A stretch of 64,000 nucleotides of DNA from a virus (taxonomy: Duplodnaviria; Heunggongvirae; Uroviricota; Caudoviricetes). Position numbers and translations under genes: made by a program. Below the pieces are notes generated by a model, which was not told where the DNA came from, did not search any database, and saw nothing but the letters and a program-made list of their open reading frames with translations. The stretch lies in the IMG/VR virus record IMGVR_UViG_3300046499_000850; one strand, 5' to 3'. Positions 8,301-57,051 of this stretch are shown piece after piece. Each line of letters starts with the position of its first letter. Positions within the stretch are counted from its first letter, which is position 1.

Positions 8301-9221
8301 ATGCTGAACAAGTTTAACCCGTTCGAGCGCCGCACTGATGGCGACTTGTACCTCAAACCGGCCGGAATTGCCCGCCTGGTCCTGGCACTCATCGCGCTGG
8401 TGATGGCGCTCAGTTACTGGCCGATCCAATCGATCCCCACCGGCTACCTCGGAATCGTTACCACCCTCGGTAAGATCGATGATGTCCGCACCGACGGCGG
8501 CACCTTTATCCTGCCTTGGCAGAAGCTGACCGCGTTCAATGCTCGTGCCGAGAAGGCCGACATCGAGAACGCTGAAGGTAGCACCTCCGACACCCAACCG
8601 GTGAAGGTCAGCCTGACGGTGCGTTACGCAATCAACCGCAACAAGGTCGCCGAAGTGTTCGAACAATACAGCCGCGATGGTGACCTGTCATCCTACGTGC
8701 AAACCGCCACGCAGGAAGTCTTCAAGGCCGTCACCGCCAAATACAGCGCACCGGACTTGATCTCCAAGCGCACCAATGTATCGTCGGACATCTCGTCGGC
8801 GCTGGCTACCAAGCTGTCCATGTACGGGGCCAAAGTCATCAGCATTGACATGCGCACGTTCTCGTTCTCGCCATCCTACATGGCGGCGATCAATGAAAAG
8901 GTCACGCAAGAACAGTTGCGCCTGGGTGCCGAGAATAAGCTGAAGACGGTCGAATCCGAACAGAAGCAGAAGGTTGTGATTGCCGAAGCCGAAGCCGAAG
9001 CTGTCAAGAAGACCGCCGACGGTTCTGCCTACTCGGTGACCAAAGCTGCCGAAGCCGAAGCCCAAGCGATCCGTGTCAAGGCTCAAGCGCTGGCTCAGAA
9101 CAAGGACCTGCTGGAACTGCGCCGGATCGAAGTCGAAGCCATCCGCGCAGAAAAGTGGAATGGTCAACTGCCGACCACGATGTACGGTTCGGCCCCGATT
9201 CCGTTCCTGAACGCCAAGTAA
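8301..9221 (+). CDS. SPFH/band-7 (prohibitin/HflK-like) membrane protein
   Basis: N-terminal TM, SPFH-like core, Ala/Glu-rich coiled-coil tail (AEAEAVKK...AEAEAQAIR). Confidence 0.75.
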   Translation: MLNKFNPFERRTDGDLYLKPAGIARLVLALIALVMALSYWPIQSIPTGYLGIVTTLGKIDDVRTDGGTFILPWQKLTAFNARAEKADIENAEGSTSDTQPVKVSLTVRYAINRNKVAEVFEQYSRDGDLSSYVQTATQEVFKAVTAKYSAPDLISKRTNVSSDISSALATKLSMYGAKVISIDMRTFSFSPSYMAAINEKVTQEQLRLGAENKLKTVESEQKQKVVIAEAEAEAVKKTADGSAYSVTKAAEAEAQAIRVKAQALAQNKDLLELRRIEVEAIRAEKWNGQLPTTMYGSAPIPFLNAK

Positions 9222-9278: not shown

Positions 9279-9414
9279 GCGGCTATATCACACTACAGAG
9301 TGTAAATGTTGCACAGCAGGAAATTTTTATTGGGCAACAGGATGTTTTGAGTAGTAAGGGAATCGCGACGCCCTGCAACAGTAAAAGATGCGCTTATTTT
9401 TCGGGAGTCGAAAA

Positions 9415-10515
9415 ATGCAAAACGTAGCACCTGCTGTACTTGGTAAGAATCCCCGCTTGGGTGTGATGATCGGTCGTTTCTCGTTCATCCACCGTCAACA
9501 CGAGCGTACCCTGCAAATCATGGCTGCCGAGAATGATTACATCCTCGTCATCATCGGTTCAGCGAATCGCTGCGAGTCCAAGAAAAACCCGCACCAGTTC
9601 GCGATCCGGGCCATGATCATGGCCGAAGTGCTTCGACGGATCAAACCGGATGGGCAGTGGCGGATCATGTCTGTCAACGATACCCTTTACAACGAGGACC
9701 GTTGGAAGATGCGGGTGTACGCGAATGGCGAGCACTACGCGGACCGGCATGGCATCCATCCTGACCGCATCACGTTGTACGGTACGGACAAGGATGAATC
9801 GACCTACTACATGAATTCGTTCCCGCAATGGAACGTCAAGAAAGTGGAGAAGGTCGAAGACATCGATGCCACCAGGTTGCGGGAAGTGTGGTTCCAGAAC
9901 TGCCAGACGGCGCCTGCCGGCCTGGGTCTCCAAGACCATCTGGTCCCGGAGATGTACCGCTATCTGCGTGATGGTCACAAGTTCAACAAACCGTTGCAGG
10001 ATGACTGGCATTATCTCACGGTCAAGGAACCGGAAAAGTTCAAGGACTATCCGTATCCCGAAGCTCTGAACGTGATGTGCGGTGACGCCATCGTGGAATG
10101 CGCGAACCACATCCTGACCGTGACCCGGTCGGGTGAACTCGGTTACGGGCAAATCGCTCTGCCGGGCGGTCACAAAAACAAAAACGAAACGGCGTTCAAC
10201 GCGGCGATTCGTGAACTGTTCGAAGAGACCAACTTGCGCACACCAGAGCAGACCATCCGTAATTGCGTGCAAAACACGTTCCTGTTCGACCATCCTGGTC
10301 GGACGCTGAGCTCGGTTCCCAAATCGACGCTCGGCGTGCACATCAAGATCGAGCTGTGGAAAGGGGAATTCCCGCGCGCCCGTGGCGGTGACGATGCCAA
10401 GCATCCGACGCTGCCGAATGGCGGTATCCGCTGGATTCCCAAGTATGACATCATCAGCGGCAAGGTCCAGATGTGGGATGACCACAACGACATCGTGGAT
10501 TATTTCACGGCGTAA
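9415..10515 (+). CDS. nadM: bifunctional NMN adenylyltransferase / Nudix ADP-ribose pyrophosphatase (NadM-like)
   Basis: GRFSFIHRQH nucleotidyltransferase motif near N-terminus; Nudix box GGHKNKNETAFNAAIRELFEETNL in C-terminal half. Confidence 0.8.
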   Translation: MQNVAPAVLGKNPRLGVMIGRFSFIHRQHERTLQIMAAENDYILVIIGSANRCESKKNPHQFAIRAMIMAEVLRRIKPDGQWRIMSVNDTLYNEDRWKMRVYANGEHYADRHGIHPDRITLYGTDKDESTYYMNSFPQWNVKKVEKVEDIDATRLREVWFQNCQTAPAGLGLQDHLVPEMYRYLRDGHKFNKPLQDDWHYLTVKEPEKFKDYPYPEALNVMCGDAIVECANHILTVTRSGELGYGQIALPGGHKNKNETAFNAAIRELFEETNLRTPEQTIRNCVQNTFLFDHPGRTLSSVPKSTLGVHIKIELWKGEFPRARGGDDAKHPTLPNGGIRWIPKYDIISGKVQMWDDHNDIVDYFTA

Positions 10516-10583
10516 AGAATAGTGGCAGAAGCCATGAGGGTGGCCGGTCCCTTACCGGTGCAGTAAATAATTGGGAGCCAATT

Positions 10584-12134
10584 ATGTTAGAACTGATTAA
10601 ACCCTTCAACATCATCCTTTGGGCAGACACCTACAAATTCTCGCACTGGGAAGAAATTCCGTTTGCGGTGAAGCAGTTGGTGTCAGCTGTGGTTCCGCGC
10701 AAAGCCATCACTTTCGAGGATGGTACGTTCATGACGGACGACCTGGTGGCCGCTGGACAAACGTTCATCGCCCACGTGTTCGCCACGGCGCGTCTCGAAC
10801 AATGGATGATCGACGAAGCGGAAGTCGAAATTACCGAGCAGGGCTACACCTTCAATCGCGCTGGTTGGGAATACATCCTCCGTACCTACGGTGGCCGGAT
10901 TCCGCTGACCATGTTCGGGGTTGAAGAAGGTCGTGTGGTTAAACCCCAAACACCGATTCTGCTGGTGACCAACGAAGACGACGACCACACCGCATGGTTG
11001 GTTCCGTACTTCGAGCCGGTGATCCAGTCGGTGTCCTGGTCGATGACTTACACGGCCACCATCTGCCGTTACATGTTCACCGTGATGGCGTACTACGTAC
11101 TGCTGTCCGGCGGTGACATCAAACTGCTGGAATATCTGATCCACAACTTCGGTGACCGTGGTGCGGATAGTCCGGATGAAACCCCCGTCCTCAAAGGCAT
11201 TGCTCACGCGATGCTGTTCCTGGGCAGTGACTGCGGGCGTGCCAACGGCTACATCAAGAAGCTGTACAACACGTCCAAACCCTTCACCTCGTCGGTGGAG
11301 GCCACGGAACACACGACGGTCTGCCTGAACTCGGACGCGGCAACGCGTGACGACTTCGGCGGCATGCAGATGGTGATGCGGCGCCTCAAAGCTGTGGTCG
11401 AACGCAGCAAGCGCGGCATCGGTATCCCCATCATCTCGACTGTGCCGGATACCTACGATGACGAACGGTTCATCACGGTGTACGTCGCTGGCTTCAAGGT
11501 GGAAATCGAAAACTCGGGTGGCCGCTTGGTCATCCGTCCGGATTCGGGTATCCCCGCGAAGAAGTTGCCACAAGTGCTCAACTGGCTGAAGGACATCTTC
11601 GGCACGGTTGCGAACGAACTCGGTTACCAGAACCTGCCATGGTGCATCGGCGCGTTGTATGGTGACGGCATGAACGTTCACACTTTCGAACCTGTCGTGC
11701 GGGCAGCGGTGGTGGATCACAAATTCACTACCAACAACTTCCTGCTCGGCATGGGTGCCGGCATCACCAACGAAGGTTCCCGTGACAAGGCAAGCTTCAG
11801 CATGAAAACCATTGCCATGCGTGGCGAAACGTGGAAACGTGTGCTGAAGGAGCCCAAGTCGGACCTGGGTAAGAAGTCGCTGTCGGGTCTGATCCGCAAT
11901 CGTGAAAACGAAAACGGTGAACTCGAAACCTTCGATGCACTGGTATCGAACAGCCTCTACGAGATGTTCGTGCCGGGACCTGGTCATCGTCGTTGGCTCG
12001 ATAAGGGTTACCGCGATTACCGTCAGTCGTTCGATGACGTCCGTGCTTGGGCACAAAAGGGCGCTATCGATAAAGCAACCGCTCGCCTCGCTGCCGAAAA
12101 AGTGGCGCACGATGCAGAAGCTGTAGTAGCGTAA
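10584..12134 (+). CDS. nadV: nicotinamide phosphoribosyltransferase (NAMPT/NadV)
   Basis: N-terminus NIILWADTYKFSHW typical of NAMPT; about 500 aa. Confidence 0.8.
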   Translation: MLELIKPFNIILWADTYKFSHWEEIPFAVKQLVSAVVPRKAITFEDGTFMTDDLVAAGQTFIAHVFATARLEQWMIDEAEVEITEQGYTFNRAGWEYILRTYGGRIPLTMFGVEEGRVVKPQTPILLVTNEDDDHTAWLVPYFEPVIQSVSWSMTYTATICRYMFTVMAYYVLLSGGDIKLLEYLIHNFGDRGADSPDETPVLKGIAHAMLFLGSDCGRANGYIKKLYNTSKPFTSSVEATEHTTVCLNSDAATRDDFGGMQMVMRRLKAVVERSKRGIGIPIISTVPDTYDDERFITVYVAGFKVEIENSGGRLVIRPDSGIPAKKLPQVLNWLKDIFGTVANELGYQNLPWCIGALYGDGMNVHTFEPVVRAAVVDHKFTTNNFLLGMGAGITNEGSRDKASFSMKTIAMRGETWKRVLKEPKSDLGKKSLSGLIRNRENENGELETFDALVSNSLYEMFVPGPGHRRWLDKGYRDYRQSFDDVRAWAQKGAIDKATARLAAEKVAHDAEAVVA

Positions 12135-15442: not shown

Positions 15443-16336
15443 ATGAACGTGGACTCTGCTAAAGAACGTGGTGTGTACTTTATCGCTGACGTAGACTCTG
15501 GCAAAGTCTACGTTGGTAGTACTGAAAATAAACGAAGGCGTCTCCGTGATCATGAGCGAATGTTGGAAAATAATAAACATCATAATCCACCATTACAAAA
15601 CGCTTACAACAAAGGGCACGCTTTCGAAACAACATTTCTTCCTTTAGAATCGCATGTCGACATTCGGAAAGTAGAAGGTGTTTTTCTTGACCATTTAAAG
15701 GACGAGAAAGTACTCCTAAACGTTTCAATGGACCCGATCGCACCAATGGCTGGGAGAAAACAAACTCCTGAGCAAATTGAAGCAGCGCGACAGCGGATGA
15801 TGGGAAATACTTATACTCTCGGTCATAAACAAACTGATGAGCATAAACAGAACGCCGTAGCGGGTCGGGCAGGTTATCGTCATTCGGAAGAAACGATAGC
15901 CAAGATTAGCGAGTCCAATAAGGGGAAACAAACCGACAAGGTTATTTCTCCTGAAAATTTGGAGAAGCTAAGGCAAGCCAATCTGGGGCATACGCGAAGT
16001 TATGGTCGTACTCATTCGGATGAAACGAAAGAAAAACTTCGAATATTGAGTACAGGAAGAACCCATTCGGTTTCGGAAGAAGCTAGGGAAGTTATGCGTC
16101 AAGCAAAACTCGGGAAACCTCTTTCTGAAGAACATCGTCAAAAACTTAGCGTTGCAGGAATGGGTCGAGTAGATTCACCGGAAACACGTGCTAAGAAATC
16201 GCTTGCTAACGCAGATCGTGCAAAACCTGTTGTAATTGAAGGCGTCGAATACGGTAGCCGGAACGCAGCAGCAAAGGCGTTAGGTGTTACCCTTACTACG
16301 ATTACCAACCGGATTAATTCGGGACTTTACAAGTGA
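15443..16336 (+). CDS. free-standing GIY-YIG homing endonuclease with NUMOD3 repeats and C-terminal HTH
   Basis: GVYFIADVDSGKVYVGSTENKRRRLRDH (GIY...YVG...R), repeated SEETIAKIS/SDETKEKL/SEEHRQKLS NUMOD3-like units, lower GC than flanks. Confidence 0.85.
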   Translation: MNVDSAKERGVYFIADVDSGKVYVGSTENKRRRLRDHERMLENNKHHNPPLQNAYNKGHAFETTFLPLESHVDIRKVEGVFLDHLKDEKVLLNVSMDPIAPMAGRKQTPEQIEAARQRMMGNTYTLGHKQTDEHKQNAVAGRAGYRHSEETIAKISESNKGKQTDKVISPENLEKLRQANLGHTRSYGRTHSDETKEKLRILSTGRTHSVSEEAREVMRQAKLGKPLSEEHRQKLSVAGMGRVDSPETRAKKSLANADRAKPVVIEGVEYGSRNAAAKALGVTLTTITNRINSGLYK

Positions 16337-16343
16337 GATTAGA

Positions 16344-17249
16344 ATGGCGACTTACTTTATTTGGACAGTCCAGATATACCGTGCCGGTAATTTGAAGGAA
16401 CAGGGAATTCACTTACTTAACACTACGGCAAAAGACGGAGTCAGGGCGTTCGCGCCCTCCTTCAATGACGTGATGCTGTACAAGGAGGGTAAACTCTCCC
16501 AAACCCAGTACACGGACATTTACCTGCACCGCATGAAAGATTCGCGGGAGAAGAACCCCGCAGATTGGAAACGACTGCAAGAGCATGAGAAAGTGGCAGT
16601 GGCATGTTACTGTAGTCCTGGTAAGTTCTGTCACCGTCATTTGTTTATCCACGACATGAAGGCGGACCTAGAAGCCCGTGGTCATGAAGTGAAACTCATG
16701 GGAGAACTCAATGGACCTGATTACAGCCCGGTGGCTCCGAAAGCGGTAGTTTCGATTCCACGGGACGTGGTCATCGTTCCGTTTTATAGTAAACATGATT
16801 TGTTGTCGAATCATCACCCTAGTGGTTTTACCATCAAGGGTGTGACATTCGCGCACGTTGAGCAATTCATGATGTACTGTAAGGCGATGCTGTTTAACGA
16901 TAAACTGCAAGCAGGGCGGATTCTGGCTGAATCCAATCCCCAAGGGTGTAAAATTCTCGGGCGCGGGGTTCGTCCTTATGACGAGAAGTTGTGGGCTGCC
17001 AAACGGCGTCGGTATGTGTATTTCGCGTGTTTACAGAAAGCGCGCGAACACAAAGAGGTGCGTGAATATTTGCTGTCGACTGGCAATGCGATTTTAGTCG
17101 AAGCCAGCGCCAAGGATGTGATCTGGGGGGTGGGGATTGCCAAAGACGATCCACGCATCTACGACATGGCCCAATGGCGCGGGATGAATTTGTTGGGCGA
17201 GATCTGGATGGAAGTGCGTCGGGTCTTACAAGAAGATGTTCTATTCTAA
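16344..17249 (+). CDS. DUF4326-like N-domain fused to NADAR (YbiA-like) domain protein
   Basis: CYCSPGKFCHRHL motif N-terminal; NADAR-like FYSKHDLLSNHHP...EQFMMYCKAMLF...LLSTGNAILVEASAKDVIWGVG. Confidence 0.7.
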   Translation: MATYFIWTVQIYRAGNLKEQGIHLLNTTAKDGVRAFAPSFNDVMLYKEGKLSQTQYTDIYLHRMKDSREKNPADWKRLQEHEKVAVACYCSPGKFCHRHLFIHDMKADLEARGHEVKLMGELNGPDYSPVAPKAVVSIPRDVVIVPFYSKHDLLSNHHPSGFTIKGVTFAHVEQFMMYCKAMLFNDKLQAGRILAESNPQGCKILGRGVRPYDEKLWAAKRRRYVYFACLQKAREHKEVREYLLSTGNAILVEASAKDVIWGVGIAKDDPRIYDMAQWRGMNLLGEIWMEVRRVLQEDVLF

Positions 17250-33919: not shown

Positions 33920-34408
33920 ATGAATTTAGCGCGTCATTTGGCTACCGAGTCGGAGAACGATGCGGCTGCCGCAGAAATCGAAGCGCTTGCGAAAGCGCAG
34001 CCATATCTCGAAGAATGGATCGGTTACGATCTGGACAAGACATTGTTTGTCCATGAAATTTGGAAAGGTGTACTGCACTTTGGTGAGCCTATTCCTGCCA
34101 TGATCGAACACTTGAAGCACAACCTCGAACAAGGTATCAAGTGCAAGATCTTTACTGCTCGTGTTTCTTACGACAGCGAACTTATAAATGCAGTTGTTGG
34201 CAAGGCAATTCAAGATTTGCTCTTCGAGCACGTTGGTCAGCGCTTGGAAGTGACCTGCAAGAAGGACATGGGCATGCGTAAACTCTTCGACGATCGCGCT
34301 TTCAACGTTGAGCCCAACAAAGGCATCATCAATGGCGCCACCAACCATGGCCCTAGCATCACCGCTGAATTCACGCGGCGATTGAAAGAAGAACTCGGTC
34401 AGGATTGA
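33920..34408 (+). CDS. HAD-superfamily phosphatase (DxDxT)
   Basis: GYDLDKTLF (motif I), KIFTAR (Lys motif), FDDRAFN (Asp motif). Confidence 0.6.
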   Translation: MNLARHLATESENDAAAAEIEALAKAQPYLEEWIGYDLDKTLFVHEIWKGVLHFGEPIPAMIEHLKHNLEQGIKCKIFTARVSYDSELINAVVGKAIQDLLFEHVGQRLEVTCKKDMGMRKLFDDRAFNVEPNKGIINGATNHGPSITAEFTRRLKEELGQD

Positions 34409-34411
34409 ATC

Positions 34412-34570
34412 ATGGTCAGACTCTTCAAGAAGTACTTAGATGTTACCAAAATCGAATTAGATGAGAAGAACCGGATGGCTCGTATTGGCTACGGCTTGAA
34501 CGAGGGTCGTCCGTTCTTTCGCATCGATCTCTGGAAGCGTGGGTATCGCATCACGCGGAAAGAGAAATAG
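34412..34570 (+). CDS. possible small ORF (52 aa)
   Basis: below ORF-track cutoff; basic protein. Confidence 0.3.
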   Translation: MVRLFKKYLDVTKIELDEKNRMARIGYGLNEGRPFFRIDLWKRGYRITRKEK

Positions 34571-34580
34571 CAGTTTCAAC

Positions 34581-34723
34581 GCTAGGAGAGCTCAGTGAGG
34601 TCGTAGAGTGCTATCGGGTAGAAGGGGGTCGCTGAGTTGGAAACTCAGCCGTCTGAGGACGTAGCTCAATGTCAAGAGTACCTTCCAAGATAGAGGTCAC
34701 AGGTTCGAGTCCTGTTCCTAGCA
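34581..34723 (+). tRNA. split tRNA-like unit X0: 5' half 34581-34615 plus 3' half 34689-34723 with 73-nt intervening sequence that itself has a D-arm-like element
   Basis: acceptor gctagga/tcctagc 7/7, anticodon stem ctatc/gatag 5/5, var loop aggtc, T-arm acagg-ttcgagt-cctgt; no encoded CCA. Confidence 0.45.
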
Positions 34724-34735
34724 TCAAGTTTCATC

Positions 34736-34890
34736 GGGCACGTAGCTCAGCTGGTAGAGCGTTGTCATCGTTTGGGGTCGCTGGTTCGAGTCCAGCCTAG
34801 TTAGGGTGCACCTTCCTAGTAGCTCAGTTGGTTAGAGCACAAACCAGCTAAAGACAAAGGCCCTGGGTTCAATTCCTGGCGTGTCCACCA
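34736..34890 (+). tRNA. split tRNA-like unit X1: 5' half 34736-34766 plus 3' half 34853-34890; the 86-nt intervening sequence carries a permuted tRNA-like unit
   Basis: acceptor gggcacg/cgtgtcc 7/7 (1 GU), anticodon stem ttgtc/gacaa 5/5, halves 31+38 nt as in a canonical 76-nt tRNA; inner unit anticodon stem caaac/gtttg 5/5. Confidence 0.5.
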
Positions 34891-34900
34891 AGTTTCAATG

Positions 34901-35063
34901 CGCGGAGTAGCTCAGTTGGTAGAGCACTGTTTTTCTTAAGAAGGTCGAACGTTCGAATCGTTCCTGGACGGCGCGGGTTTACTCGCGCACGCCCTGTAGC
35001 TCAGCCAGGTAGAGCATCTTTTGAAGGCAGAGGTCGGGAGTTCGAGTCTCCTCTCCAAGCCCA
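34901..35063 (+). tRNA. two tandem tRNA-like units (about 34901-34971 and 34993-35063) with canonical D/T arms but short loops; cross-unit stem pairing is better than within-unit
   Basis: tagctcagttggtagagc / ttcgaatcg and tagctcagccaggtagagc / ttcgagtctcc; var loop aggtc in both. Confidence 0.4.
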
Positions 35064-35088
35064 GTTTCTAAGTAGTATGTAGTATGTA

Positions 35089-35168
35089 GGGCGTTTAGCT
35101 CAGTCCGGTAGAGCGTCGCCTCCATTAATCGGCGAAGGTCTTGGGTTCAAATCCCGCCGTATCCACCA
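35089..35168 (+). tRNA. tRNA-like unit with 10-nt anticodon loop (tcgcc-tccattaatc-ggcga) and poorly paired acceptor
   Basis: D-arm tagctcagtccggtagagc, T-loop ttcaaat, ends tccacca. Confidence 0.4.
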
Positions 35169-35187
35169 AGTTTTAAAGTAGTACCGT

Positions 35188-35265
35188 AGGGGTGTCGCCA
35201 AGCTGGTCTAAGGCTCCGGATTTTGATTCCGGCATTCGGAGGTTCGAATCCTCCCACCTCTGCCA
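35188..35265 (+). tRNA. tRNA-Gln (UUG)
   Basis: aggggtg..cacctct acceptor, anticodon arm ccgga-ttttgat-tccgg, T-arm ggagg-ttcgaat-cctcc, ends gcca; near-identical to enterobacterial tRNA-Gln. Confidence 0.85.
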
Positions 35266-35283
35266 AGTTTTTTTTGTTTCACC

Positions 35284-35446
35284 GGGTGTGTAGCTTAGTT
35301 GGTAGAGCGCGATCATTTAAGAATTGGGGGTTCGAGTCCCCCTACCTCCCTCTCGGAGGTATGGCGGAATTGGTAGACGCGCCGTCCTGAAAGACGGTTT
35401 CATACCGCGATCGAGGTCTTGGGTTCGATTCCTGACACATCCACCA
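35284..35446 (+). tRNA. split tRNA-like unit X2: 5' half 35284-35314 plus 3' half 35409-35446; the 94-nt intervening sequence carries a permuted type-II tRNA-like unit whose acceptor ends form a hairpin (tacctcc-ctctc-ggaggta)
   Basis: acceptor gggtgtg/cacatcc 7/7 (1 GU), anticodon stem cgatc/gatcg 5/5, var aggtc, T-arm ttggg-ttcgatt-cctga, ends acca. Confidence 0.5.
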
Positions 35447-35545: not shown

Positions 35546-35619
35546 GTCTCCGATAGCTCAGCTGGACAGAGCGGCCCCGGTGCAGGGGTATGGACCCTGG
35601 TTCGATGCCAGGTCGGGGA
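35546..35619 (+). tRNA. tRNA-like gene with non-canonical anticodon loop (ggtgcag)
   Basis: acceptor tctccga/tcgggga, D-arm gctcagctggacagagc, T-arm cctgg-ttcgatg-ccagg. Confidence 0.45.
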
Positions 35620-35686
35620 GCCCTATTCGAAGAATAAAGACGGCATACAACCCTTCCCAACCCCGGCGGGATCAGGAAGGGAAGAG

Positions 35687-36046
35687 TTAACGTGCGCCGC
35701 CGTTGTAGGGTACCGCCAAGCCTTGCTTCACCAATTCAGCATTGACGCTGGTGGTTGAGTTAGGCAGATATACCTCAGCCAAATAGCGACCGTACTTTTC
35801 TTTTTCGTCAGCGACAGTTTGGATCACCACGGGAGACTCCGGCGGTAACTTCTGTTGCAACCACGCTTTCGAAGCTTTGCCTGCCGGTGTGCTGGTCTCG
35901 GGCGCATTGATCCCGTTAAAGCGGCACGTCATGTTGATGTTGACATCGCAACCGAGGTCAACCCTGAACTCGGCGGTATCCCCATCGATCACCCGAATAA
36001 CGGTGGCGTTACGAATGTAGACATCTTTCTTTTTTGCTGCGACCAT
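35687..36046 (-). CDS. staphylococcal-nuclease (SNase/thermonuclease)-like nuclease
   Basis: VIDGDTAEF...NGINAPET...KYGRYLAEV pattern typical of SNase fold; only minus-strand gene in window. Confidence 0.75.
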   Translation of the reverse strand: MVAAKKKDVYIRNATVIRVIDGDTAEFRVDLGCDVNINMTCRFNGINAPETSTPAGKASKAWLQQKLPPESPVVIQTVADEKEKYGRYLAEVYLPNSTTSVNAELVKQGLAVPYNGGAR

Positions 36047-36721: not shown

Positions 36722-36925
36722 ATGTTCGCTTTTATCTATTTCTTTTGCGCAATCATCTCGTTGGTGGAATTCATCACCGGCTGGGACAAAGCCCGTAACA
36801 AACTCAAGAGTATTGCTGGATGTGTGATCGCGCTCATTCCACTGCTCAACCTCATCATGGCCATCGCTGTTATCACACACCGGTGGCCGAAGATCAAAGC
36901 CTGGACCGTCAAGTATTTCGGCTAA
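36722..36925 (+). CDS. small membrane protein (67 aa)
   Basis: first ATG after tRNA within ORF 36644..36925. Confidence 0.35.
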   Translation: MFAFIYFFCAIISLVEFITGWDKARNKLKSIAGCVIALIPLLNLIMAIAVITHRWPKIKAWTVKYFG

Positions 36926-37971
36926 CGTTCAATGGGTTTAGTCTGGATCGTCCGCGGGTCGCATTGTCCATACAGGCGGTATCGCACCGCAGAAACAAGT
37001 GTCTTGACTTCTAAGGTCACCTTACTAAACCCACCCTTTAAGAACCCGTGTTTACACTCGAAGTAAGAACTGCATTAAGACTTGCCTTCGTCTGGCTTTA
37101 CATTTGCAGCTATCCCTCTCGCGGAGGTTTGAGGGACGTACCTAACATGGGTTCTTTCTTATTTCAAATAACCGTACTGATGAGCCGTGGAAGTCGGCCG
37201 CTAGCCTAGCTAGCCAAGGTTGCAAACCCTTCGAAACGGCGCAAGCTGTATGCGGATGGCCCCTCACAATGGAGGCTGTCCCCATGTCACCCCACTACCA
37301 ACAGGGACGGGACTTGATGTGGGTACCCGGCAGTAGCTGATGACAAGGCTGCTTAAATTGTGCGGCTATTTCAAACTGGGCGTACCCCTGTCAAGGGTTC
37401 GACCCCCGCTGGTAGCAAGTTGTGCGATAGTCTGTGCTGGACTTGTAACCGCAAGGAACTTGTTCTTCGTGACGCGATCGAAAGATCATTGTGCAGCCGT
37501 TGGTCTGTCTTTGGGGTTGTGGCCACAATCCGTGAAGAATTCCATCGTGGAATGGCGAGAGGAAGGGACATCGCGCCCGGCCGTGGATGGCGGACCTTCC
37601 TCTCACTTCCTTCTAGTTAACTTAGCCGGACTCTAATTCAGAAAGCATCTACCGGAAACAAAGAGCCGGTTAAGGATGGGAAGAATGAACGCCTAGAAGG
37701 AAGCACATGACTAAGGCAGGTGCGGGTCGACACGCATGGCTGTATGAAAGTGTGTGGGTATCTAGGACGGGGCATGGTTCGAATCCATGGCGTCCGGCTA
37801 AGTTAACTGTTTAGAAAGTACTTACAGGGTGGGGCAAAGGTACGGAAGGATCAGATCCGTGCTACGTAACCACAATACTGGATTGATCCTCTGGTATGTT
37901 GGTGGACCGTCACGACGGTGCCGCCACCCTGTAAGTACTTTTATGCCGTCAATTTTTTAGAGAGTGCAGAA
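36926..37971 (+). ncRNA. about 1-kb structured non-coding region with tRNA-like T-arm (37765-37789), AA*-ending mini-ORF and 18-bp perfect inverted repeat (37815-37832 / 37924-37941); candidate tmRNA-like or other large ncRNA
   Basis: ggacgggg-catgg-ttcgaat-ccatg; gca gta gct gat gac aag gct gct taa at 37330-37356; no credible CDS. Confidence 0.35.
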
Positions 37972-39235: not shown

Positions 39236-39320
39236 GGGAGTATGGCGGAATTGGTAGACGCCCCGGCCTCAAAATCCGGTGTCGAAAGACGTGCGAGTTC
39301 GAGTCTCGCTACTCCCACCA
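39236..39320 (+). tRNA. tRNA-Leu (CAA), type II
   Basis: acceptor gggagta/tactccc perfect, D-arm gcggaattggtagacgc, loop ctcaaaa, long variable arm, T-arm gcgag-ttcgagt-ctcgc, CCA. Confidence 0.7.
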
Positions 39321-41182: not shown

Positions 41183-41746
41183 ATGAAGAAAATCAAGTCG
41201 TTGTTTCAACGTAATTACGATGGCGACCGCCAAGTCCGTAACGAAGTCGTTCCTGGTTCGGAATGGGTGACCCTTGGAGAGGGTTACGCTACCCGGAAAT
41301 GGGATGGCATGGCAGTTAAGTTAGAGAACGGGCAGTTCTTTAAACGGTACGATGCCAAAACGGGGCGTACACCTCCGCCCGACTTTCAGCCTGCTCAACC
41401 CTTGCCTGATCCGGAAACGGGCCATTGGCCGGGTTGGGTGCCATTGCAAGGTAAAGAACTCAAGCGTGTCATGGAAGCCTACCGCCAATCTGGTGTGTCG
41501 GAAGAAGGCACGTTCGAATTCTGTGGTCCAACGATTGGTACGCGTCACGGCGCCAATCCGGAAAACCTCACCGAACACATTTTGGTACCGCACGGGCAGG
41601 AAATACTGTCCAACTGTCCGCGCGATTTCGATGGATTGAAAACGTTCTTGGGGGAACGAAATATCGAAGGGGTTGTGTGGTGGCATCCCGATGGCCGTCG
41701 GGTCAAAATCAAGGCTGCTGACTTCGGTATTCAGCGGCGGCACTAG
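41183..41746 (+). CDS. small covalent-nucleotidyltransferase (ATP-dependent RNA/DNA ligase-like) protein
   Basis: TRKWDGMAV (KxDG motif I), EGVVWWHPDG (motif IV-like), RVKIK (motif V-like); only 187 aa. Confidence 0.45.
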   Translation: MKKIKSLFQRNYDGDRQVRNEVVPGSEWVTLGEGYATRKWDGMAVKLENGQFFKRYDAKTGRTPPPDFQPAQPLPDPETGHWPGWVPLQGKELKRVMEAYRQSGVSEEGTFEFCGPTIGTRHGANPENLTEHILVPHGQEILSNCPRDFDGLKTFLGERNIEGVVWWHPDGRRVKIKAADFGIQRRH

Positions 41747-52924: not shown

Positions 52925-54157
52925 ATGGAAACCAAATACGAATTGCTGGACAATCCCTCGTTTGAATCGGCCGCACCTGTCAAGATGTGGACACGTGGTG
53001 TGCCGGTCGAAGACGAGGCCAAAGTTCAACTTAGCCGTATGGCAGAAATGCCGTTCATCTACAAGCACATCGCGGTTATGCCGGACGTCCACGTCGGCAA
53101 AGGTTCGACCATCGGCAGCGTGATCCCGACCCTTGGCGCCATCATACCGGCTGCCGTCGGCGTCGATATCGGCTGCGGTATGATGGCGGCCAAAACCACG
53201 CTGGCGGCTAGCGACCTGCCAGACAATCTGTTCGGTATCCGCTCAGCGATCGAGAAAGCCGTACCGCACGGCCGTACCAACAATGGTGGACGTGGCGACC
53301 GTGGCGCATGGTACAGCACTCCGGAAGAAGTTGTTCACGCGTGGGGTGAACTGGCAACCGAGTTTGCCACCATCACGCAGAAACATCCGCGTCTCGCCAA
53401 GACCAACAACATCCAGCATCTGGGTACGCTTGGGACTGGTAACCACTTCGTGGAATTGTGTCTCGATGAACATGGTTCGGTCTGGATCATGTTGCACTCG
53501 GGTTCGCGTGGTGTCGGCAACAGCATCGGTATGCAATTCATCGAGCTGGCGAAAGAAGACATGCGTTCGCACCAGATCAATCTGCCAGAAAAGGATCTGG
53601 CGTATTTGCAGGAAGGTACCCGGCATTACGACGACTACGTGGAAGCCGTCGGTTGGGCGCAGAAGTTCGCGCTCAAGAACCGCGAGGTGATGATGCACAA
53701 CGTCATCAAGGCTATCCGCACGATCATCACCAAACCGTTCGAGACCCATGTCGAAGCGATCAACTGCCACCACAACTACGTGCAGAAGGAAAACCACTTC
53801 GGCCGTGATGTGATGTTGACCCGCAAAGGCGCAGTGTCGGCTAAGCAAGGTCAGCTCGGTATCATCCCGGGTTCGATGGGCGCCAAGAGCTTTATCGTGC
53901 GCGGTAAAGGTAACCCCGAATCGTTCGACAGCTGCTCGCACGGCGCTGGACGCAAGATGAGCCGTACTGCCGCGAAAGCTGCGTTCACGGTGGAAGACCA
54001 GATCAAGGCAACCGAAGGTATCGAATGCCGCAAAGACGCCGAGGTGATCGACGAGATCCCGCTAGCGTACAAGGACATCGATGCGGTGATGGAAGCCCAG
54101 AGCGATCTGGTTGAAGTCGTCTACACGCTACGCCAAGTCGTCTGCGTCAAAGGTTAA
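52925..54157 (+). CDS. rtcB: RNA-splicing ligase RtcB
   Basis: HVGKGSTIGSV, DIGCGM, GTGNHF, HSGSRG, NCHHNY, SCSHGAGR signature motifs. Confidence 0.95.
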   Translation: METKYELLDNPSFESAAPVKMWTRGVPVEDEAKVQLSRMAEMPFIYKHIAVMPDVHVGKGSTIGSVIPTLGAIIPAAVGVDIGCGMMAAKTTLAASDLPDNLFGIRSAIEKAVPHGRTNNGGRGDRGAWYSTPEEVVHAWGELATEFATITQKHPRLAKTNNIQHLGTLGTGNHFVELCLDEHGSVWIMLHSGSRGVGNSIGMQFIELAKEDMRSHQINLPEKDLAYLQEGTRHYDDYVEAVGWAQKFALKNREVMMHNVIKAIRTIITKPFETHVEAINCHHNYVQKENHFGRDVMLTRKGAVSAKQGQLGIIPGSMGAKSFIVRGKGNPESFDSCSHGAGRKMSRTAAKAAFTVEDQIKATEGIECRKDAEVIDEIPLAYKDIDAVMEAQSDLVEVVYTLRQVVCVKG

Positions 54158-54164
54158 ATTGTAC

Positions 54165-54192
54165 CCCGAGGGCTCGCAACCCTCAGTTTTTC
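54165..54192 (+). terminator. intrinsic terminator (gaggg-ctcgcaa-ccctc + agttttt)
   Basis: stem-loop plus T-run. Confidence 0.6.
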
Positions 54193-54207
54193 AACCAGGA
54201 GATTAAC

Positions 54208-55065
54208 ATGAACACCCGTCCCGTTTGCAGTAAAGAATGGTTGCTGGAACTATGCGCCGAAGTGGTCACCCGTCCGGAACTTACTCACCTGTACGACAAA
54301 GACCATTTCGAAGAAGGTCTGAATGTCATTGAAATCAATGAACTGGATCTTGATGAAACATATTCCGACGCCTACGGGTTGCCGGACAAGTTCCGTGTCT
54401 TGTTCCCAGACACATATCTCAAGTTGCAGTTCATCTGGCAGAACTTGATTGAGCTACGTGACCTGCATCAGTTCAAAACTGATGCCAGCCACTTGATCCG
54501 GTCGATCGACGGCACGCCGTTATCCGGCATGGTTTTCCTCTTTAACCTCAATCGTTACGATCTCGAACGTTGGGAAGAGCGCACCAAGTTCTTCCATGAC
54601 ATCATCGATGATGCCGAAGCGCGCATCGTCGCGATGCACCCGGACAAGCCGATGAAGCTCAAGCGTTTCCCGTTTGCGCAAGGTGACTGGATGCAAGTCG
54701 TGCAATCGGAAGACGGTACCAAATCGGCGTTGGTATCTACTGGTGGATCGCTAGGTGGCGATATGGGGACATGGGTTGAATTCACCATGGTCAATCCTGA
54801 TCCAGCCATAGCCGACCAACCTTATCCATTCGACGAAAATGCTAGCTATCCGCGCGACCGCCAAGTCGGCACGAGCTACACTTGGCTCTCCGGACCTGTG
54901 CTGGCAGACTGGTTCGCCAACGGCGTCATTCCTGAGCCTGATTTGGTCCAGTTGATGGATAGCTATGCTAAAGATGGTGAATTCAAATCCGGTCCCTTGA
55001 CCGAGACCATGGCCGAGATTCACGCCCGCTTCGACCAAGAACATCCGGCCGACAAAGACGAATAA
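54208..55065 (+). CDS. hypothetical protein (285 aa)
   Basis: RBS accaggagattaac-ATG. Confidence 0.55.
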   Translation: MNTRPVCSKEWLLELCAEVVTRPELTHLYDKDHFEEGLNVIEINELDLDETYSDAYGLPDKFRVLFPDTYLKLQFIWQNLIELRDLHQFKTDASHLIRSIDGTPLSGMVFLFNLNRYDLERWEERTKFFHDIIDDAEARIVAMHPDKPMKLKRFPFAQGDWMQVVQSEDGTKSALVSTGGSLGGDMGTWVEFTMVNPDPAIADQPYPFDENASYPRDRQVGTSYTWLSGPVLADWFANGVIPEPDLVQLMDSYAKDGEFKSGPLTETMAEIHARFDQEHPADKDE

Positions 55066-55073
55066 TCAACAAC
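55062..55073 (+). promoter_or_regulatory. ATAATCAACAAC promoter-like motif
   Basis: gaataatcaacaacacaaaaaggaaaagcatc-ATG. Confidence 0.5.
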
Positions 55074-55091
55074 ACAAAAAGGAAAAGCATC

Positions 55092-55802
55092 ATGACTCTC
55101 GTTGTTTACAAAGATGGCGTTCTGGCTGCTGATAGCCGTGGTACCGTCATGGGTGACATCTTCGACGAACACGATCGCTGTGCCCATTGCGGCGAAGAAG
55201 CGCATATCGTCAACGACACCGGCAACAAGATTACGCTGGCACCGGCAGACAAAGAAATCAAATTCCGTGGCAGCAAGGTGCTCGCGATCGGTCAAGCTGG
55301 TAACAAAATGCTCAGCCAGCGTATCGTCGGCATGATCATGAAGGGCAAGGACCTGGAAGAGATGTTCGCGAATTACATCGCCTTCCACACCACCCATCAT
55401 GACCACCGGCAAACCTCGTCGTTCCTGTTCTGCTGCGAAAAGGAAAACTACACGGTACACATGCCGAAGAAAGGCAACCTGGTCATCGAGCGACATGAAC
55501 TCGGCAAGGTCATTGGCATCGGCGCCAATGTCAAGGTCGCGGAGTGGTTTAGCGAAGTTATCCCGAGCGTCACCCCTTCGCACCTGATCAACCTGATCAT
55601 GGCCAAGAACAAAGGTATCGGTGGCCCGGTGCTTGAAGTCGACTTGAAACAAGCTGAACGCAAAATTCAAAAGGTCGAGATCAAGGACCCGACGGCACTG
55701 ATGAAAGAAATCACCAATATCTTTACAATAGGCATCGAAGCCAAAGTGGCTGCCGAAAAGAAACCAGCGAGCCGTCGTAAGTCGGCTGTGAAGAAGGAGT
55801 AA
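55092..55802 (+). CDS. Ntn-hydrolase, HslV/proteasome-beta-like peptidase with inserted Cys/His segment
   Basis: M-TLVVYKDGVLAADSRGT (Thr2 nucleophile context like HslV TTIVSVR..G.VVIAGDGQAT), VLAIGQAGN, VIGIGAN. Confidence 0.5.
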   Translation: MTLVVYKDGVLAADSRGTVMGDIFDEHDRCAHCGEEAHIVNDTGNKITLAPADKEIKFRGSKVLAIGQAGNKMLSQRIVGMIMKGKDLEEMFANYIAFHTTHHDHRQTSSFLFCCEKENYTVHMPKKGNLVIERHELGKVIGIGANVKVAEWFSEVIPSVTPSHLINLIMAKNKGIGGPVLEVDLKQAERKIQKVEIKDPTALMKEITNIFTIGIEAKVAAEKKPASRRKSAVKKE

Positions 55803-55806
55803 GTCA

Positions 55807-57051
55807 GTGGAAATATATCTCGTAGGCGGCGCAGTCCGTGACCAAGTCATGGGTGTGCCATCGTTGGACCGTGATTGGGTGGTGGTAGGTAGCACTCCTG
55901 AGCAAATGGAAACCCAAGGTTATCGCTCAGTCGGTAAAGACTTCCCGATCTACTTACATCCGCTCACGAAAGAAGAATACGCGTTAGCGAGGCGTGAACG
56001 CAACGGCAACGTCACCGTGTTCTCGCCGGATGTGACACTGGAAGAAGACTTGGCGAAGCGTGATCTCACGATCAATGCCATGGCGATGGAACTGTTCGAT
56101 CTGGACAAGCCAACGGCGTCGTACCGCGTGATCGACCCGCACTTCGGCCACGACGACATCCTCAACAAAGTACTGCGGATGGTCAGCTACGATGCTTTTT
56201 GGGAAGACCCGATCCGGGTGTTGCGCGTCGCTCGCTTTGCTGCGCGCTATCCGGACTTTCGCATCGATTGCGGTACCATGCTGGCGATGGAAGAACTGGC
56301 CGACAAGGGCAAGCTCGATAACCTCGCACCGGAACGCGTCTGGAAAGAACTGTCACGTGGTCTGATGGAGATCAAGCCATCGCGCATGCTGCAAGTGCTG
56401 CGTGAATGCGGCGCGTTGAAAGTGATCCTACCAGAAGTCGATGCGCTCTACGGTGTTATTCAACCCGCCCAATGGCACCCGGAGATCGACACCGGCGTCC
56501 ACGTCGAGCAAGTGCTCGATTATGCTGCCAGCCAGAACTTCGAACTGCCAGTGCGGTGGGCGTGTTTGTTGCACGATCTCGGTAAAGCGTTGTCGCCGAA
56601 AGACACTCTGCCTGCCCACCACGGTCATGAGTACGAAGGCGTCCATCTCGCGTTAAATGTTTGTGAGCGTTTAAACGTACCAACGCGAATAGCCCAAGTG
56701 GCCATCACTACGACCCGTGAACACGGTAACATCCACGGGGCGATGAAGTTGCGGCACACGAGTATCACCAAAATCTTGCGCAAGTGTGATGCGTTCCGTA
56801 ACCCAGACCGTTTCCAACACATCCTGCAAGCGTGTCTGTGCGATGCCCGCGGTCGGCATTCAGAAACCAAGAGCTTCGCTGATGTCGAGTACCCGCAAGC
56901 CGTACGTCTGACCAACGCTCTGTGGGCTGCCAAGCAAGTCAAAGGTGACCTAGTCGCGGAACGCTGCAAAGGTCGTCCACAAGACATCGCTTTGGAAATG
57001 CACGCAGCTCGCGCCCGCGCCATCAAAGCATTCGAGCGTAATCAAAAATAA
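55807..57051 (+). CDS. cca: CCA-adding tRNA nucleotidyltransferase (class II, with HD domain)
   Basis: YLVGGAVRDQVMGVPSLDRDWVVVG head motif; HD-type C-terminal half; GTG start with RBS aagaaggagtaag. Confidence 0.9.
   Translation: MEIYLVGGAVRDQVMGVPSLDRDWVVVGSTPEQMETQGYRSVGKDFPIYLHPLTKEEYALARRERNGNVTVFSPDVTLEEDLAKRDLTINAMAMELFDLDKPTASYRVIDPHFGHDDILNKVLRMVSYDAFWEDPIRVLRVARFAARYPDFRIDCGTMLAMEELADKGKLDNLAPERVWKELSRGLMEIKPSRMLQVLRECGALKVILPEVDALYGVIQPAQWHPEIDTGVHVEQVLDYAASQNFELPVRWACLLHDLGKALSPKDTLPAHHGHEYEGVHLALNVCERLNVPTRIAQVAITTTREHGNIHGAMKLRHTSITKILRKCDAFRNPDRFQHILQACLCDARGRHSETKSFADVEYPQAVRLTNALWAAKQVKGDLVAERCKGRPQDIALEMHAARARAIKAFERNQK

Follow-up and report, generated by a model that had tools for sequence, protein, structure and literature searches.

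The tRNA-Like Array

We analyzed a 64,000-nucleotide (nt) stretch of DNA (hereafter, the window) from a virus of the Caudoviricetes (IMG/VR record IMGVR_UViG_3300046499_000850), which carries an array of tRNA-like units on its plus strand between positions 34581 and 35622. The array consists of 11 units (U1–U11), every one of which has a D arm and a T arm. Ten of them lie inside 34581–35446, where eight of the 10 are arranged as four nested doublets, each with an outer tRNA body whose two halves enclose a second tRNA-like module. The 5′ border of the array is formed by a haloacid dehalogenase (HAD)-like gene together with a 52-codon open reading frame (ORF) (33920–34570, plus strand), and the 3′ border by a convergent staphylococcal-nuclease-like gene (35687–36046, minus strand). 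Loci in other genomes are designated below by L numbers.

From 5′ to 3′, the array contains doublet 1 (U1/U2, 34581–34726), doublet 2 (U3/U4, 34736–34890), doublet 3 (U5/U6, 34901–35063), the single unit U7 (35089–35168), a tRNA-Gln(UUG) (35188–35265), doublet 4 (U9/U10, 35284–35446), and U11 (35547–35622), all on the plus strand. The outer bodies of doublets 2 and 4 and the body of U7 are of the alanine (Ala) type, and those of doublets 1 and 3 are not. The tRNA-Gln(UUG) is canonical (Rfam tRNA model, 58.1 bits), is the sole ordinary tRNA inside the array, and is kept in all relatives. It was also the only unit called normal by ARAGORN, which reported U10 and U11 as "tRNA-???" with 2-nt anticodons, (tg) in the case of U11, and left the remaining units in 34581–35446 uncalled. 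The Rfam tRNA model matched the other units at 26–37 bits with non-canonical pairs and gapped anticodon regions. U11 is tRNA-like and not nested; it forms a good cloverleaf with an acceptor of 7/7 pairs (TCTCCGA/TCGGGGA), a 6-nt anticodon loop (GGTGCA) and no CCA, and sits just upstream of the convergent nuclease gene.

U2, U4, U6, U7, U8, and U10 are the only units followed by an encoded CCA (TCA in the case of U2) and an AGTTT-type spacer; neither follows U1, U3, U5, or U9, whose 3′ ends are inner ones. Because the CCA and the spacer are restricted to outer 3′ ends, they independently mark the doublet as the repeating gene unit.

Pairing Between Units

Every 5′ acceptor strand of the 11 units was scored against every 3′ acceptor strand with G·U pairs allowed; a random pair of 7-mers reaches 7/7 under this rule with a probability of about 0.001. 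Within their own units, the acceptors of U1–U6 form 2, 3, 4, 2, 4, and 2 of seven pairs, respectively, that of U9 forms 6/7, and that of U10 forms 5/7. The 5′ strand of U1 pairs at 2/7 positions with its own 3′ strand but at 7/7 with the 3′ strand of U2, and the same holds for U3 (4/7 with its own strand, 7/7 with that of U4) and U9 (6/7 with its own strand, 7/7 with that of U10). Conversely, the 5′ strand of U10 pairs at 7/7 with the upstream 3′ strand of U9, and the acceptors of U5 and U6 cross-pair at 5/7 in both directions. The U9 5′ strand reaches 7/7 not only with U10 but also with the 3′ strands of U4 and U7, which are paralogous acceptors. Anticodon-stem strands cross-pair likewise (CTATC/GATAG, TTGTC/GACAA, CTGTT/GGCAG, and CGATC/GATCG). 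Read as tandem genes, the units have neither a 7-bp acceptor of their own nor a 7-nt loop with U33 and an assignable anticodon.

The original prediction, made from the window alone, had described three such split bodies, and all three are present: gctagga/tcctagc (7/7) with ctatc/gatag (5/5) at 34581–34615 and 34689–34722, gggcacg/cgtgtcc (7/7, one G·U) with ttgtc/gacaa (5/5) at 34736–34766 and 34853–34886, and gggtgtg/cacatcc (7/7, one G·U) with cgatc/gatcg (5/5) at 35284–35314 and 35409–35442. Its count was too low, as the fourth doublet at 34901–35063 had been overlooked, and the 76-nt tRNA that it described as followed by ACCA already includes the ACCA. That the units are mispaired when taken as simple tandem genes holds overall, with the qualification that U9, at 6/7 in its own acceptor, is ambiguous from a single genome.

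The outer 5′ half and its 3′ half are separated by 73–94 nt, which fold as a circularly permuted tRNA-like module. In all four doublets, this inner module has its 3′ half upstream of its 5′ half, with a short linker connecting the acceptor ends. The inner elements gtttg/caaac (5/5) and the hairpin tacctcc-ctctc-ggaggta (7/7), also named in the original prediction, were both found.

Covariation of the Nested Fold

Two alignments of related doublets were examined, one of the U9/U10 family (A3, six sequences) and one of the U3/U4 and U5/U6 family (A6, eight sequences). In A3, the nested structure leaves 94.3% of cells paired, with 19 pairs changed on both sides, and none of 500 shuffles was as good; slid controls reached 39–51%. 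All five outer anticodon-stem pairs and five of the seven inner acceptor pairs covary in this alignment. The tandem reading of A3, with acceptors and anticodon stem taken within each unit, gave 68.4% paired cells and a covariation score equal to that of shuffles. In A6, the nested structure was paired in 93.4% of cells with 27 compensatory pairs, and 0/500 shuffles matched it on any of five measures, while the tandem acceptors were paired in 50.0%, which is the level of noise.

RNAalifold run without a supplied structure returned the nested fold for both alignments, and single-sequence RNAfold did the same with doublet 1 and with many relatives. Stable tetraloop hairpins, which themselves covary, close the inner tips, and covariation is as strong in the outer stems as in the inner ones. 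Since the conserved G·U pairs would read as C·A mismatches on the opposite strand, selection acts on the plus-strand RNA. In related phages, compensation keeps the nested helices and leaves the tandem ones at the level of shuffles; the proposed architecture, in which outer tRNA halves are split by a permuted tRNA-like module, is thus borne out by comparative data. We conclude, with very little doubt, that the nested architecture is real and under selection.

Scores from covariance models carry less information here. A model built from the nested alignment (R1) scored its training members at 127–162 bits and ordinary tandem pairs at 60–106 bits, the tandem tRNA-Lys pairs of IMG/VR loci such as L021, L039, L048, and L060 reaching 98–106 bits. 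Model-based searches, including those with the Rfam YrlA model, cannot separate nested doublets from tandem tRNA dimers, but cross-pairing and covariation can. As R1 is non-specific, its matches were excluded from the evidence.

Anatomy of the Doublets and of U7

Doublets 1–3 share one order of elements. Each begins with the outer acceptor 5′ strand, the D arm, the outer anticodon-stem 5′ strand, and a short linker. The inner part then runs from a stem 5′ strand through the variable loop, T arm, acceptor 3′ strand, closing loop or hairpin, acceptor 5′ strand, and D arm to the stem 3′ strand. A second linker, the outer anticodon-stem 3′ strand, AGGTC, the T arm, the acceptor 3′ strand, and NCCA complete the doublet. 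The inner unit of these three doublets is a tRNA permuted at its anticodon loop and stacked end to end on the outer anticodon stem. It is attached to that stem through its own anticodon stem, whereas the inner unit of doublet 4 is attached at the position of a class II variable arm.

In doublet 1, the outer 5′ half (34581–34615) comprises the acceptor strand GCTAGGA, a D arm, and the anticodon-stem strand CTATC, and the outer 3′ half (34689–34726) comprises GATAG, AGGTC, a T arm, TCCTAGC, and A-TCA. Between them, the inner module (34616–34688) is closed by the stem GAAGG/CCTTC and contains a T-like hairpin (34632–34648), a mini acceptor hairpin CGTC-TGAG-GACG (34650–34661), and a D arm (34664–34679). 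The nested fold of doublet 1 is its RNAfold minimum-free-energy fold (−51.1 kcal/mol, z = −2.2).

The outer halves of doublet 2 span 34736–34766 (GGGCACG to TTGTC) and 34853–34890 (GACAA, AGGCC, T arm, CGTGTCC, and A-CCA). Its inner permuted module (34767–34852) has the stem GTTTG/CAAAC, a T arm (34780–34796), a D arm (34822–34838), and the closed acceptor CTAGTTA...TTCCTAG, with linkers ATC and CAGCTAAA. Orthologues of this doublet were identified in L016, L169, L012, and L166.

Doublet 3 has a weaker outer acceptor (CGCGGAG/CTCCAAG, 5/7, then C-CCA) and the outer anticodon stem CTGTT/GGCAG. The inner module includes a T arm (34947–34963) and a D arm (34999–35015), and its acceptor is lengthened by the hairpin GCGCG-GGTTTACT-CGCGC (34971–34988). 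The orthologue at L012:8429–8591 has an outer acceptor of different sequence that pairs at 7/7 (TTCTCGA/TCGGGAA, A-CCA), and its anticodon stem and tip hairpin (GCGCA/TGCGC) are compensated relative to doublet 3. Folded alone, the window copy is not distinctive (z = −0.26).

In doublet 4, the outer halves (35284–35314, GGGTGTG to CGATC; 35409–35446, GATCG, AGGTC, T arm, CACATCC, and A-CCA) enclose a class II, tRNA-Leu-like tRNA opened at its variable region (35315–35408). This inner module consists of a T arm (35326–35342), the closed acceptor TACCTCC-CTCTC-GGAGGTA (35343–35361), the D arm GCGGAATTGGTAGACGC (35364–35380), and an anticodon-like arm with a 6-nt loop, CCGTC-CTGAAA-GACGG (35382–35397). 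The D arm is that of tRNA-Leu and occurs also in the genuine tRNA-Leu(CAA) at 39236–39320; in two relatives the corresponding D arm is tRNA-Ser-like. Five homologues of doublet 4 were found, in L007, L016, L012 (twice), and L166.

U7 has a broken acceptor (GGGCGTT/CGTATCC, 5/7) and an expanded 10-nt loop, TCCATTAATC. Two other assemblies of the same phage, L003 and L006 (99.3–99.7% identical), hold approximately 350–370 nt of additional sequence at window position ~35118 (L003:11170–11623). The extra stretch encodes an Ala-type unit with a 58-nt insert (U7a, acceptor 7/7), a tRNA-Ser(GCT), and an Ala-type unit with a 12-nt loop (U7b, 7/7). The deletion breaks within the shared D arm (window 35096–35118) and fuses the 5′ end of U7a to the 3′ end of U7b. 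U7 is therefore a deletion-recombinant of recent origin, made from two units that sister genomes keep intact. The same ~350–370-nt deletion is present in L004 and L005 and represents a polymorphism inside one phage population.

The loop core of U7b, ACCATTTAA, reappears at L012:7579, where the stem covaries. An expanded loop of 10–12 nt is found in Ala-type bodies that lack a large insert (L003:11542–11623, L012:7579–7662, and window 35089–35168); the core ACCAUUUAA is common to L003 and L012, and the closing stems differ (TCGCC/GGCGA vs. GCTC/GAGC). ARAGORN read L012:7579–7662 with the 4-nt anticodon "attt". Doublet 4 and its homologue in L166 have AUUUAA in the 5′ linker as well.

Relatives and the Wider Family

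The phage of the window has a genome of ~272 kb, is of metagenomic origin, encodes a chimallin-type protein (phage-nucleus shell protein) and a PhiKZ-type capsid, and was assembled independently four times (L003–L006). Relatives were reached through look-ups of the exact flanking HAD-like protein and of its homologues. Identity of this protein is 78% for L007–L011, 66% for L012–L015, 65% for L166, 63% for L016, 62% for L169, and 58% for L017. BLAST of the array showed whole doublets conserved at 70–81% DNA identity in relative loci, and at least seven diverged metagenomic jumbo phages of the chimallin type (~270 kb) carry homologous doublets. Searches of INPHARED (megablast and blastn) found no close isolate relative beyond single-tRNA matches, and a search of IMG/VR with the flanking protein found no close relatives. 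Two distant isolates, BcepSaruman and FLC4-3B, carry ordinary tRNA arrays at the equivalent locus. In L017, a U5/U6-type chassis bears a U3/U4-type inner module, which represents shuffling of chassis and cargo among paralogues.

The spacers behind the outer CCA ends of the window (e.g., 34891–34900, 35169–35187, and 35266–35283) share AGTTT(C/T)A, often followed by GTAGTA, and spacers with AGTTT(C/T)A occur also in L007, L012, L016, L166, and L169. This motif could be a processing signal or a phage promoter element; a sigma-70 promoter scan found no sigma-70-like promoter in the array.

A pattern scan of IMG/VR for Ala-type bodies with a gap of 60–90 nt added one contig of the same clade (L019 = IMGVR_UViG_3300031134_000001, 271 kb). 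Elsewhere, this pattern matched 17 metagenome and nine genome loci, most of which are partial tRNA-Ala duplications or hairpin inserts in candidate phyla radiation (CPR) bacteria and do not belong to the family. With a gap of 90–120 nt, more than 120 IMG/VR loci were matched, nearly all of which were ordinary tandem tRNAs after filtering; these have self-consistent acceptors and 7-nt loops and were used as a negative control. As far as exact-pattern searches can tell, the family seems restricted to this clade of jumbo phages.

We then catalogued the Ala-type bodies by a structure-aware scan of the loci combined with unusually long Rfam tRNA matches, using a filter that required a GGG/TCC acceptor. 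The catalogue holds 24 distinct GGGnnnn/nnnnTCC tRNA bodies from at least seven phage lineages. An ACCA tail is present in 20/24 and the variable loop AGGTC in 22/24. Positions 4–7 of the Ala-type acceptors vary with compensation (12 different combinations at 4–7/66–69, 46/48 cells Watson–Crick), and 16 different anticodon stems occur. In place of an anticodon loop, the bodies have 12, 40, 49–58, 61–71, or 80–110 nt, and an empty 7-nt loop or intron-less allele was found in none of the 24. The sequences of 34736–34890, 35284–35446, U7, and the 24 bodies of the catalogue show G2–C71 and G3·U70 together with A73, the last as part of an ACCA tail in 20/24.

Of the roughly 30 bodies that bear inserts, about 24 belong to the Ala type. 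Doublets 1 and 3 and the bodies at L016:7223 and L017:6968 do not. The latter two (L016:7223–7374 and L017:6968–7121) represent another interrupted tRNA-like type, with a compensated 7/7 acceptor (GTCAAGA/TCTTGAC or GTCGAGA/TCTCGAC), the D arm GCGAAGTGGAAGACGC, and a conserved 87–89-nt insert in place of the loop.

At least three classes of cargo were recognized. Class 1 consists of a T-arm-like hairpin and a tetraloop hairpin. Class 2 (61–71 nt; e.g., L019:629–758, L166:5691–5825, L012:8267–8403, L016:7775–7912, and L169:5940–6080) consists of three hairpins, one of them an invariant GCCGAAAGGC, matches no Rfam family, and has a probable loop-to-tail pseudoknot that seemingly covaries (GTCGC/GCGAC and TTGC/GCAA). 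Class 3 comprises permuted tRNA-like modules of the type seen in the window, either without an anticodon loop (class 3a) or with inner arm loops of 5–8 nt (class 3b). One and the same chassis (e.g., GGGCGTT/AACGTCC) bears different cargo classes in different phages.

Interpretation and Alternatives

Our preferred interpretation, to which we give a probability of roughly 0.6, is that the locus gives rise to chimeric tRNA-like RNAs that do not decode, form a conserved family, and are neither tandem tRNAs nor pseudogenes. Each chassis has an acceptor stem, a D arm, a 5-bp anticodon stem, a 5-nt variable loop, a T arm, and an encoded CCA, and its 7-nt anticodon loop is replaced by a folded cargo of 12–110 nt. 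The RNA of a doublet is two tRNA-shaped bodies joined head to head. No canonical anticodon loop or conserved anticodon was found in any insert class. The suppressor anticodons that had been considered possible are likewise not conserved, and the window genes read normally in the standard code.

Given the outer acceptor/T-arm helix and the CCA, the units would probably be cut from the array transcript by RNase P and 3′ end nucleases. Alanyl-tRNA synthetase recognizes G1–C72, G2–C71, G3·U70, and A73 and does not read the anticodon. Since most members keep this identity set, they are probably charged with alanine, whatever replaces the anticodon loop, as is transfer-messenger RNA (tmRNA); as judged from sequence, we slightly favor the view that the outer bodies are alanine-chargeable. 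With no anticodon loop there would be no decoding, and the product would act off the decoding pathway. A 7-bp closed inner acceptor such as that of doublet 4 could also, by analogy with Mycobacterium smegmatis YrlA, be opened by RNase P to give two pieces that the swapped helices would keep together in one complex.

Candidate roles include a tRNA mimic, a decoy for host factors that bind tRNA bodies or CCA ends, and a natural "tRNA scaffold" that presents the inner module. Because the neighborhood is rich in counter-defence and RNA-repair genes, we rank an anti-defence role first among these, which is a guess; a decoy or counter-defence function is put forward tentatively. It is similarly speculative that alanine-charged, anticodon-less double-tRNA chimeras serve as sinks or inhibitors of host immune effectors directed at the bodies or the aminoacyl/CCA ends of tRNAs, or as a substrate for rescue or transfer that is specific to the phage.

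Several points weigh against this interpretation. No orthologue of doublet 1 was found beyond the same phage, and this doublet hence has no covariation support. Doublets 1 and 3 are not of the Ala type (the doublet 3 outer acceptor pairs at 5/7), so alanine charging is not the whole story, and the invariance of positions 1–3 in the catalogue is partly built in by the GGG/TCC filter. Nucleases that recognize the anticodon loop would not be bound by a decoy lacking it. Three inner arms share a well-formed 7-nt loop, CUAGAAA, and some 3′ linkers hold CTTGC, possibly a relic or a real Ala anticodon context. Finally, the window encodes the RNA ligase RtcB, which bears directly on the best of the alternatives.

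That alternative takes the doublets as intron-containing, split, or permuted genes, in which an endonuclease cuts both linkers and RtcB joins the outer halves into a decoding tRNA; in a variant, RtcB may also circularize the inner module, whose acceptor tip would be opened by RNase P and RNase Z to yield a second tRNA. The outer halves do rebuild all stems of a 76-nt tRNA, and the window encodes both RtcB and a CCA-adding enzyme. RtcB supplies the RNA ligase that exon joining needs, but tRNA repair explains its presence equally well. In L016 the linkers sum to 14 nt, and CTTGC plus AC would make an Ala-type loop. Across orthologues, however, linker lengths vary (3+8, 6+8, 5+8, 3+6, 10+6, 11+11, etc.), their sequences are not conserved, and no cut position rebuilds a consistent U33 and anticodon. 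None of the 24 bodies has an empty 7-nt loop, and selection maintains the inner helices, for which a spacer destined for excision would have no need. The two linkers lie opposite one another in a single internal loop (3 × 8, 5 × 3, or 11 × 11 nt) and do not form a 3-4-3 bulge–helix–bulge (BHB). At 12–110 nt, the inserts are too short for the core of a group I intron (~200 nt or more, P3–P8), and neither the window region nor five related loci gave an Rfam intron or ribozyme match that rose above noise. Among 56 ORFs of the window, itself 64 of ~272 kb of the genome, searched with Pfam (eight also with PHROGs), no tRNA-splicing endonuclease, archease, or Ro60/TROVE protein was found.

The spliced, intron-containing tRNAs offered as one option in the original prediction, with their unconserved linkers and with no BHB and no endonuclease among the scanned ORFs, thus fit poorly, and we regard splicing as unlikely; that the RNAs are not spliced into a decoding tRNA we think probable. 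The original prediction also held that such genes would be unprecedented for a bacteriophage, which is overstated, as Lak megaphage tRNAs with "enigmatic introns," one of them possibly tRNA-encoding, have been reported (PMC6784885), and this precedent speaks for splicing. If the chimeras were rearranged by RNase P and RtcB into functional tRNAs, as they may be, this would amount to protein-dependent splicing or permutation in a bacterial virus.

It seems quite improbable that the inserts are small mobile or selfish elements aimed at the anticodon loop of tRNA-Ala-like genes, with the host genes ruined but tolerated and the structure kept for the movement or persistence of the element. Such elements would account for the different cargo classes on the same chassis and for the shuffling of chassis and cargo, and homing-endonuclease genes are present (GIY-YIG at 15443–16336 of the window and HNH in L007). 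However, the outer stems covary as much as the inner ones, so the host body is selected too; G3·U70, A73, and CCA are kept in most copies; and the inserts encode nothing, have no terminal repeats, and have no empty target sites among the 24 bodies.

Bacterial Y RNAs of the YrlA family, acting with Ro60/Rsr and RtcB in RNA repair or decay, were also considered, as the inner modules give sub-threshold matches to the Rfam YrlA model (34.7 bits for doublet 2, and 37.3 and 31.3 bits), RtcB is encoded in the window, and YrlA occurs in some phages and beside rsr and rtcB in Salmonella (PMC4201824). The matches nevertheless span model positions 23–86 of 114, the Ro60-binding helix being replaced by tRNA halves, and score about half of the gathering threshold of 69 bits, and the authors of the YrlA study warn of false positives from dimeric tRNAs (PMC4201824). 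With no TROVE domain in the scanned window ORFs and with class 1 and 2 cargo that is not YrlA-like, we judge genuine Y RNAs very improbable.

Decayed tandem tRNAs or half-swapped recombinant pseudo-tRNAs with cross-pairing as a by-product of paralogy, the other option of the original prediction, describe U7 exactly and agree with the paralogous cross-pairing of the U9 5′ strand (7/7 with U4, U7, and U10) and with the high scores of ordinary tandem tRNAs in the doublet-built covariance model, but for the doublets they are almost certainly wrong, refuted by compensation that keeps the nested and not the tandem helices in phages whose flanking protein is just 58–78% identical, by covarying stable tetraloop hairpins at the inner tips, and by the self-consistent acceptors and 7-nt loops of the IMG/VR control tandem tRNAs. 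A tmRNA was rejected as a candidate: ARAGORN called none, the Rfam tmRNA and permuted-tmRNA models scored at most 17 bits, and the array units lack a tag frame and retain an intact D arm.

Neighboring Genes and Another Probable Structured RNA

Two RNA-processing genes lie downstream on the plus strand: an RtcB RNA ligase, which joins 3′-phosphate and 5′-hydroxyl ends (52925–54157, Pfam PF01139, E = 7.5e-128), and a CCA-adding enzyme with nucleotidyltransferase head, RNA-binding, and HD domains (55807–57051, Pfam PF01743, PF12627, and PF01966). Two unannotated ORFs lie between them (54208–55802). RtcB is a possible partner in processing or repair, and we treat both it and the CCA-adding enzyme as context for the array. 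Stretches rich in counter-defence or RNA-repair genes are found at 9388–12134, 16284–17249, 41183–41746, and 52925–57051, and the genes of these kinds in the window include a NUDIX and NAMPT pair, a NADAR/DUF488 protein, an RLIG1-like RNA ligase fragment, RtcB, and the CCA-adding enzyme. Acb2/Tad1-like genes adjoin the arrays in L016 and L168.

Downstream of the array, a stretch of ~0.9 kb without a convincing ORF (36925–37915) contains conserved blocks (69–88% identity) in six diverged relatives. Within it, the domain at 37610–37812 is closed by an 18-bp stem (TTAACTTAGCCGGAC/GTCCGGCTAAGTTAA), has a predicted folding energy of −79.4 kcal/mol (z = −6.7), and carries a T-arm-like hairpin, CATGG-TTCGAAT-CCATG (37773–37789), beside the 3′ strand of the stem. 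Relatives of this domain have a ~65-nt expansion, and no Rfam match was obtained. The domain probably represents a large structured RNA that has not yet been described. The motif ACTGATGAGCCGTGGAAGTCGGCC is conserved in the same non-coding stretch (window 37175–37200, L016 ~9430–9460, and L017 ~9090–9112); it starts with CUGAUGA as in the hammerhead core, but no GAAA follows, and no Rfam ribozyme matched.

Significance and Comparison With Known Systems

Genes for tRNAs are the commonest non-coding genes of phages and are usually read as codon supply or as spares against nucleases. The phage lineage described here appears to keep many tRNA bodies that are unable to decode, under clear purifying selection. 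In most of them, the traits required for processing and alanine charging are preserved, and the structured inserts that they bear are interchangeable. If expressed, these RNAs would constitute a new kind of tRNA mimic in viruses and a natural counterpart of the laboratory "tRNA scaffold." Such arrays in metagenomic jumbo phages are probably mis-annotated: tRNA finders miscall the units as "tRNA-???", tRNA-Ser(AGA), or pseudo-tRNAs, and the Rfam tRNA and YrlA models give misleading partial matches on them.

Full-text literature searches found no published account of an Ala-type tRNA chassis with permuted tRNA-like or other cargo in phages. The Lak megaphages have short conserved inserts in the anticodon region of tRNAs with no known splicing mechanism, and one of these inserts is predicted to encode a tRNA itself (Devoto et al., 2019; PMC6784885). 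The Lak genes keep an assignable anticodon (e.g., Thr TGT and Tyr GTA) and intron-less alleles exist, whereas the family of the window has no conserved anticodon or empty allele, is mostly of the Ala type, and carries a permuted inner module with a closed acceptor.

The inner modules resemble YrlA (Rfam RF02553), a tRNA-like module that uses tRNA modification enzymes and whose Mycobacterium smegmatis form, with the same closed-acceptor design, is cleaved by RNase P and has CCA added (Chen et al., 2014; PMC4201824). Both consist of a variable region, a T arm, a loop-closed acceptor, and a D arm, all closed by a stem, and YrlA too is present in some phages and linked to RtcB operons (PMC4201824). 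In YrlA, however, the module is mounted on a Ro60-binding helix and its gene adjoins rsr, whereas in the window doublets it is placed within the anticodon stem of another complete tRNA body that has a CCA end of its own.

In the chimeras, as in tmRNA, a large structured RNA stands in place of the anticodon arm, and doublets 2 and 4 and U7 have the G3·U70 pair and ACCA. tmRNA is a tRNA-Ala mimic with G3·U70 that ends in ...UCCACCA and is charged by alanyl-tRNA synthetase without an anticodon, and permuted two-piece forms of it exist. It differs from the chimeras in that it has no D stem, binds SmpB, and contains a tag reading frame flanked by pseudoknots, whereas the chimeras of the window have an intact D arm and 5-bp anticodon stem and no tag frame.

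Permuted and split tRNA genes, as in Cyanidioschyzon merolae and Nanoarchaeum equitans, are free-standing and BHB-flanked, are cut by splicing endonuclease, and yield decoding tRNAs, their maturation involving RNase P, RNase Z, and an RtcB-type ligase. In permuted tRNA genes, as in the inner modules, the 3′ half is encoded upstream of the 5′ half, and a short linker connects the acceptor ends. Unlike such genes, the inner modules are embedded in another tRNA, lack a BHB, and belong to a bacterial host, and those of class 3a have no anticodon loop at all.

In the engineered "tRNA scaffold" of Ponchon and Dardel, a structured RNA replaces the anticodon loop, and the tRNA body reportedly provides processing and nuclease resistance in bacteria. 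Its topology is that of the chimeras, but it is a laboratory design; we know of no natural counterpart with several cargo classes on one chassis. The closest published case is the "enigmatic introns" of Lak phages, the closest structural relative of the inner module is YrlA, the closest functional analogue of the chassis is tmRNA, and the closest analogue of the topology is the engineered tRNA scaffold.

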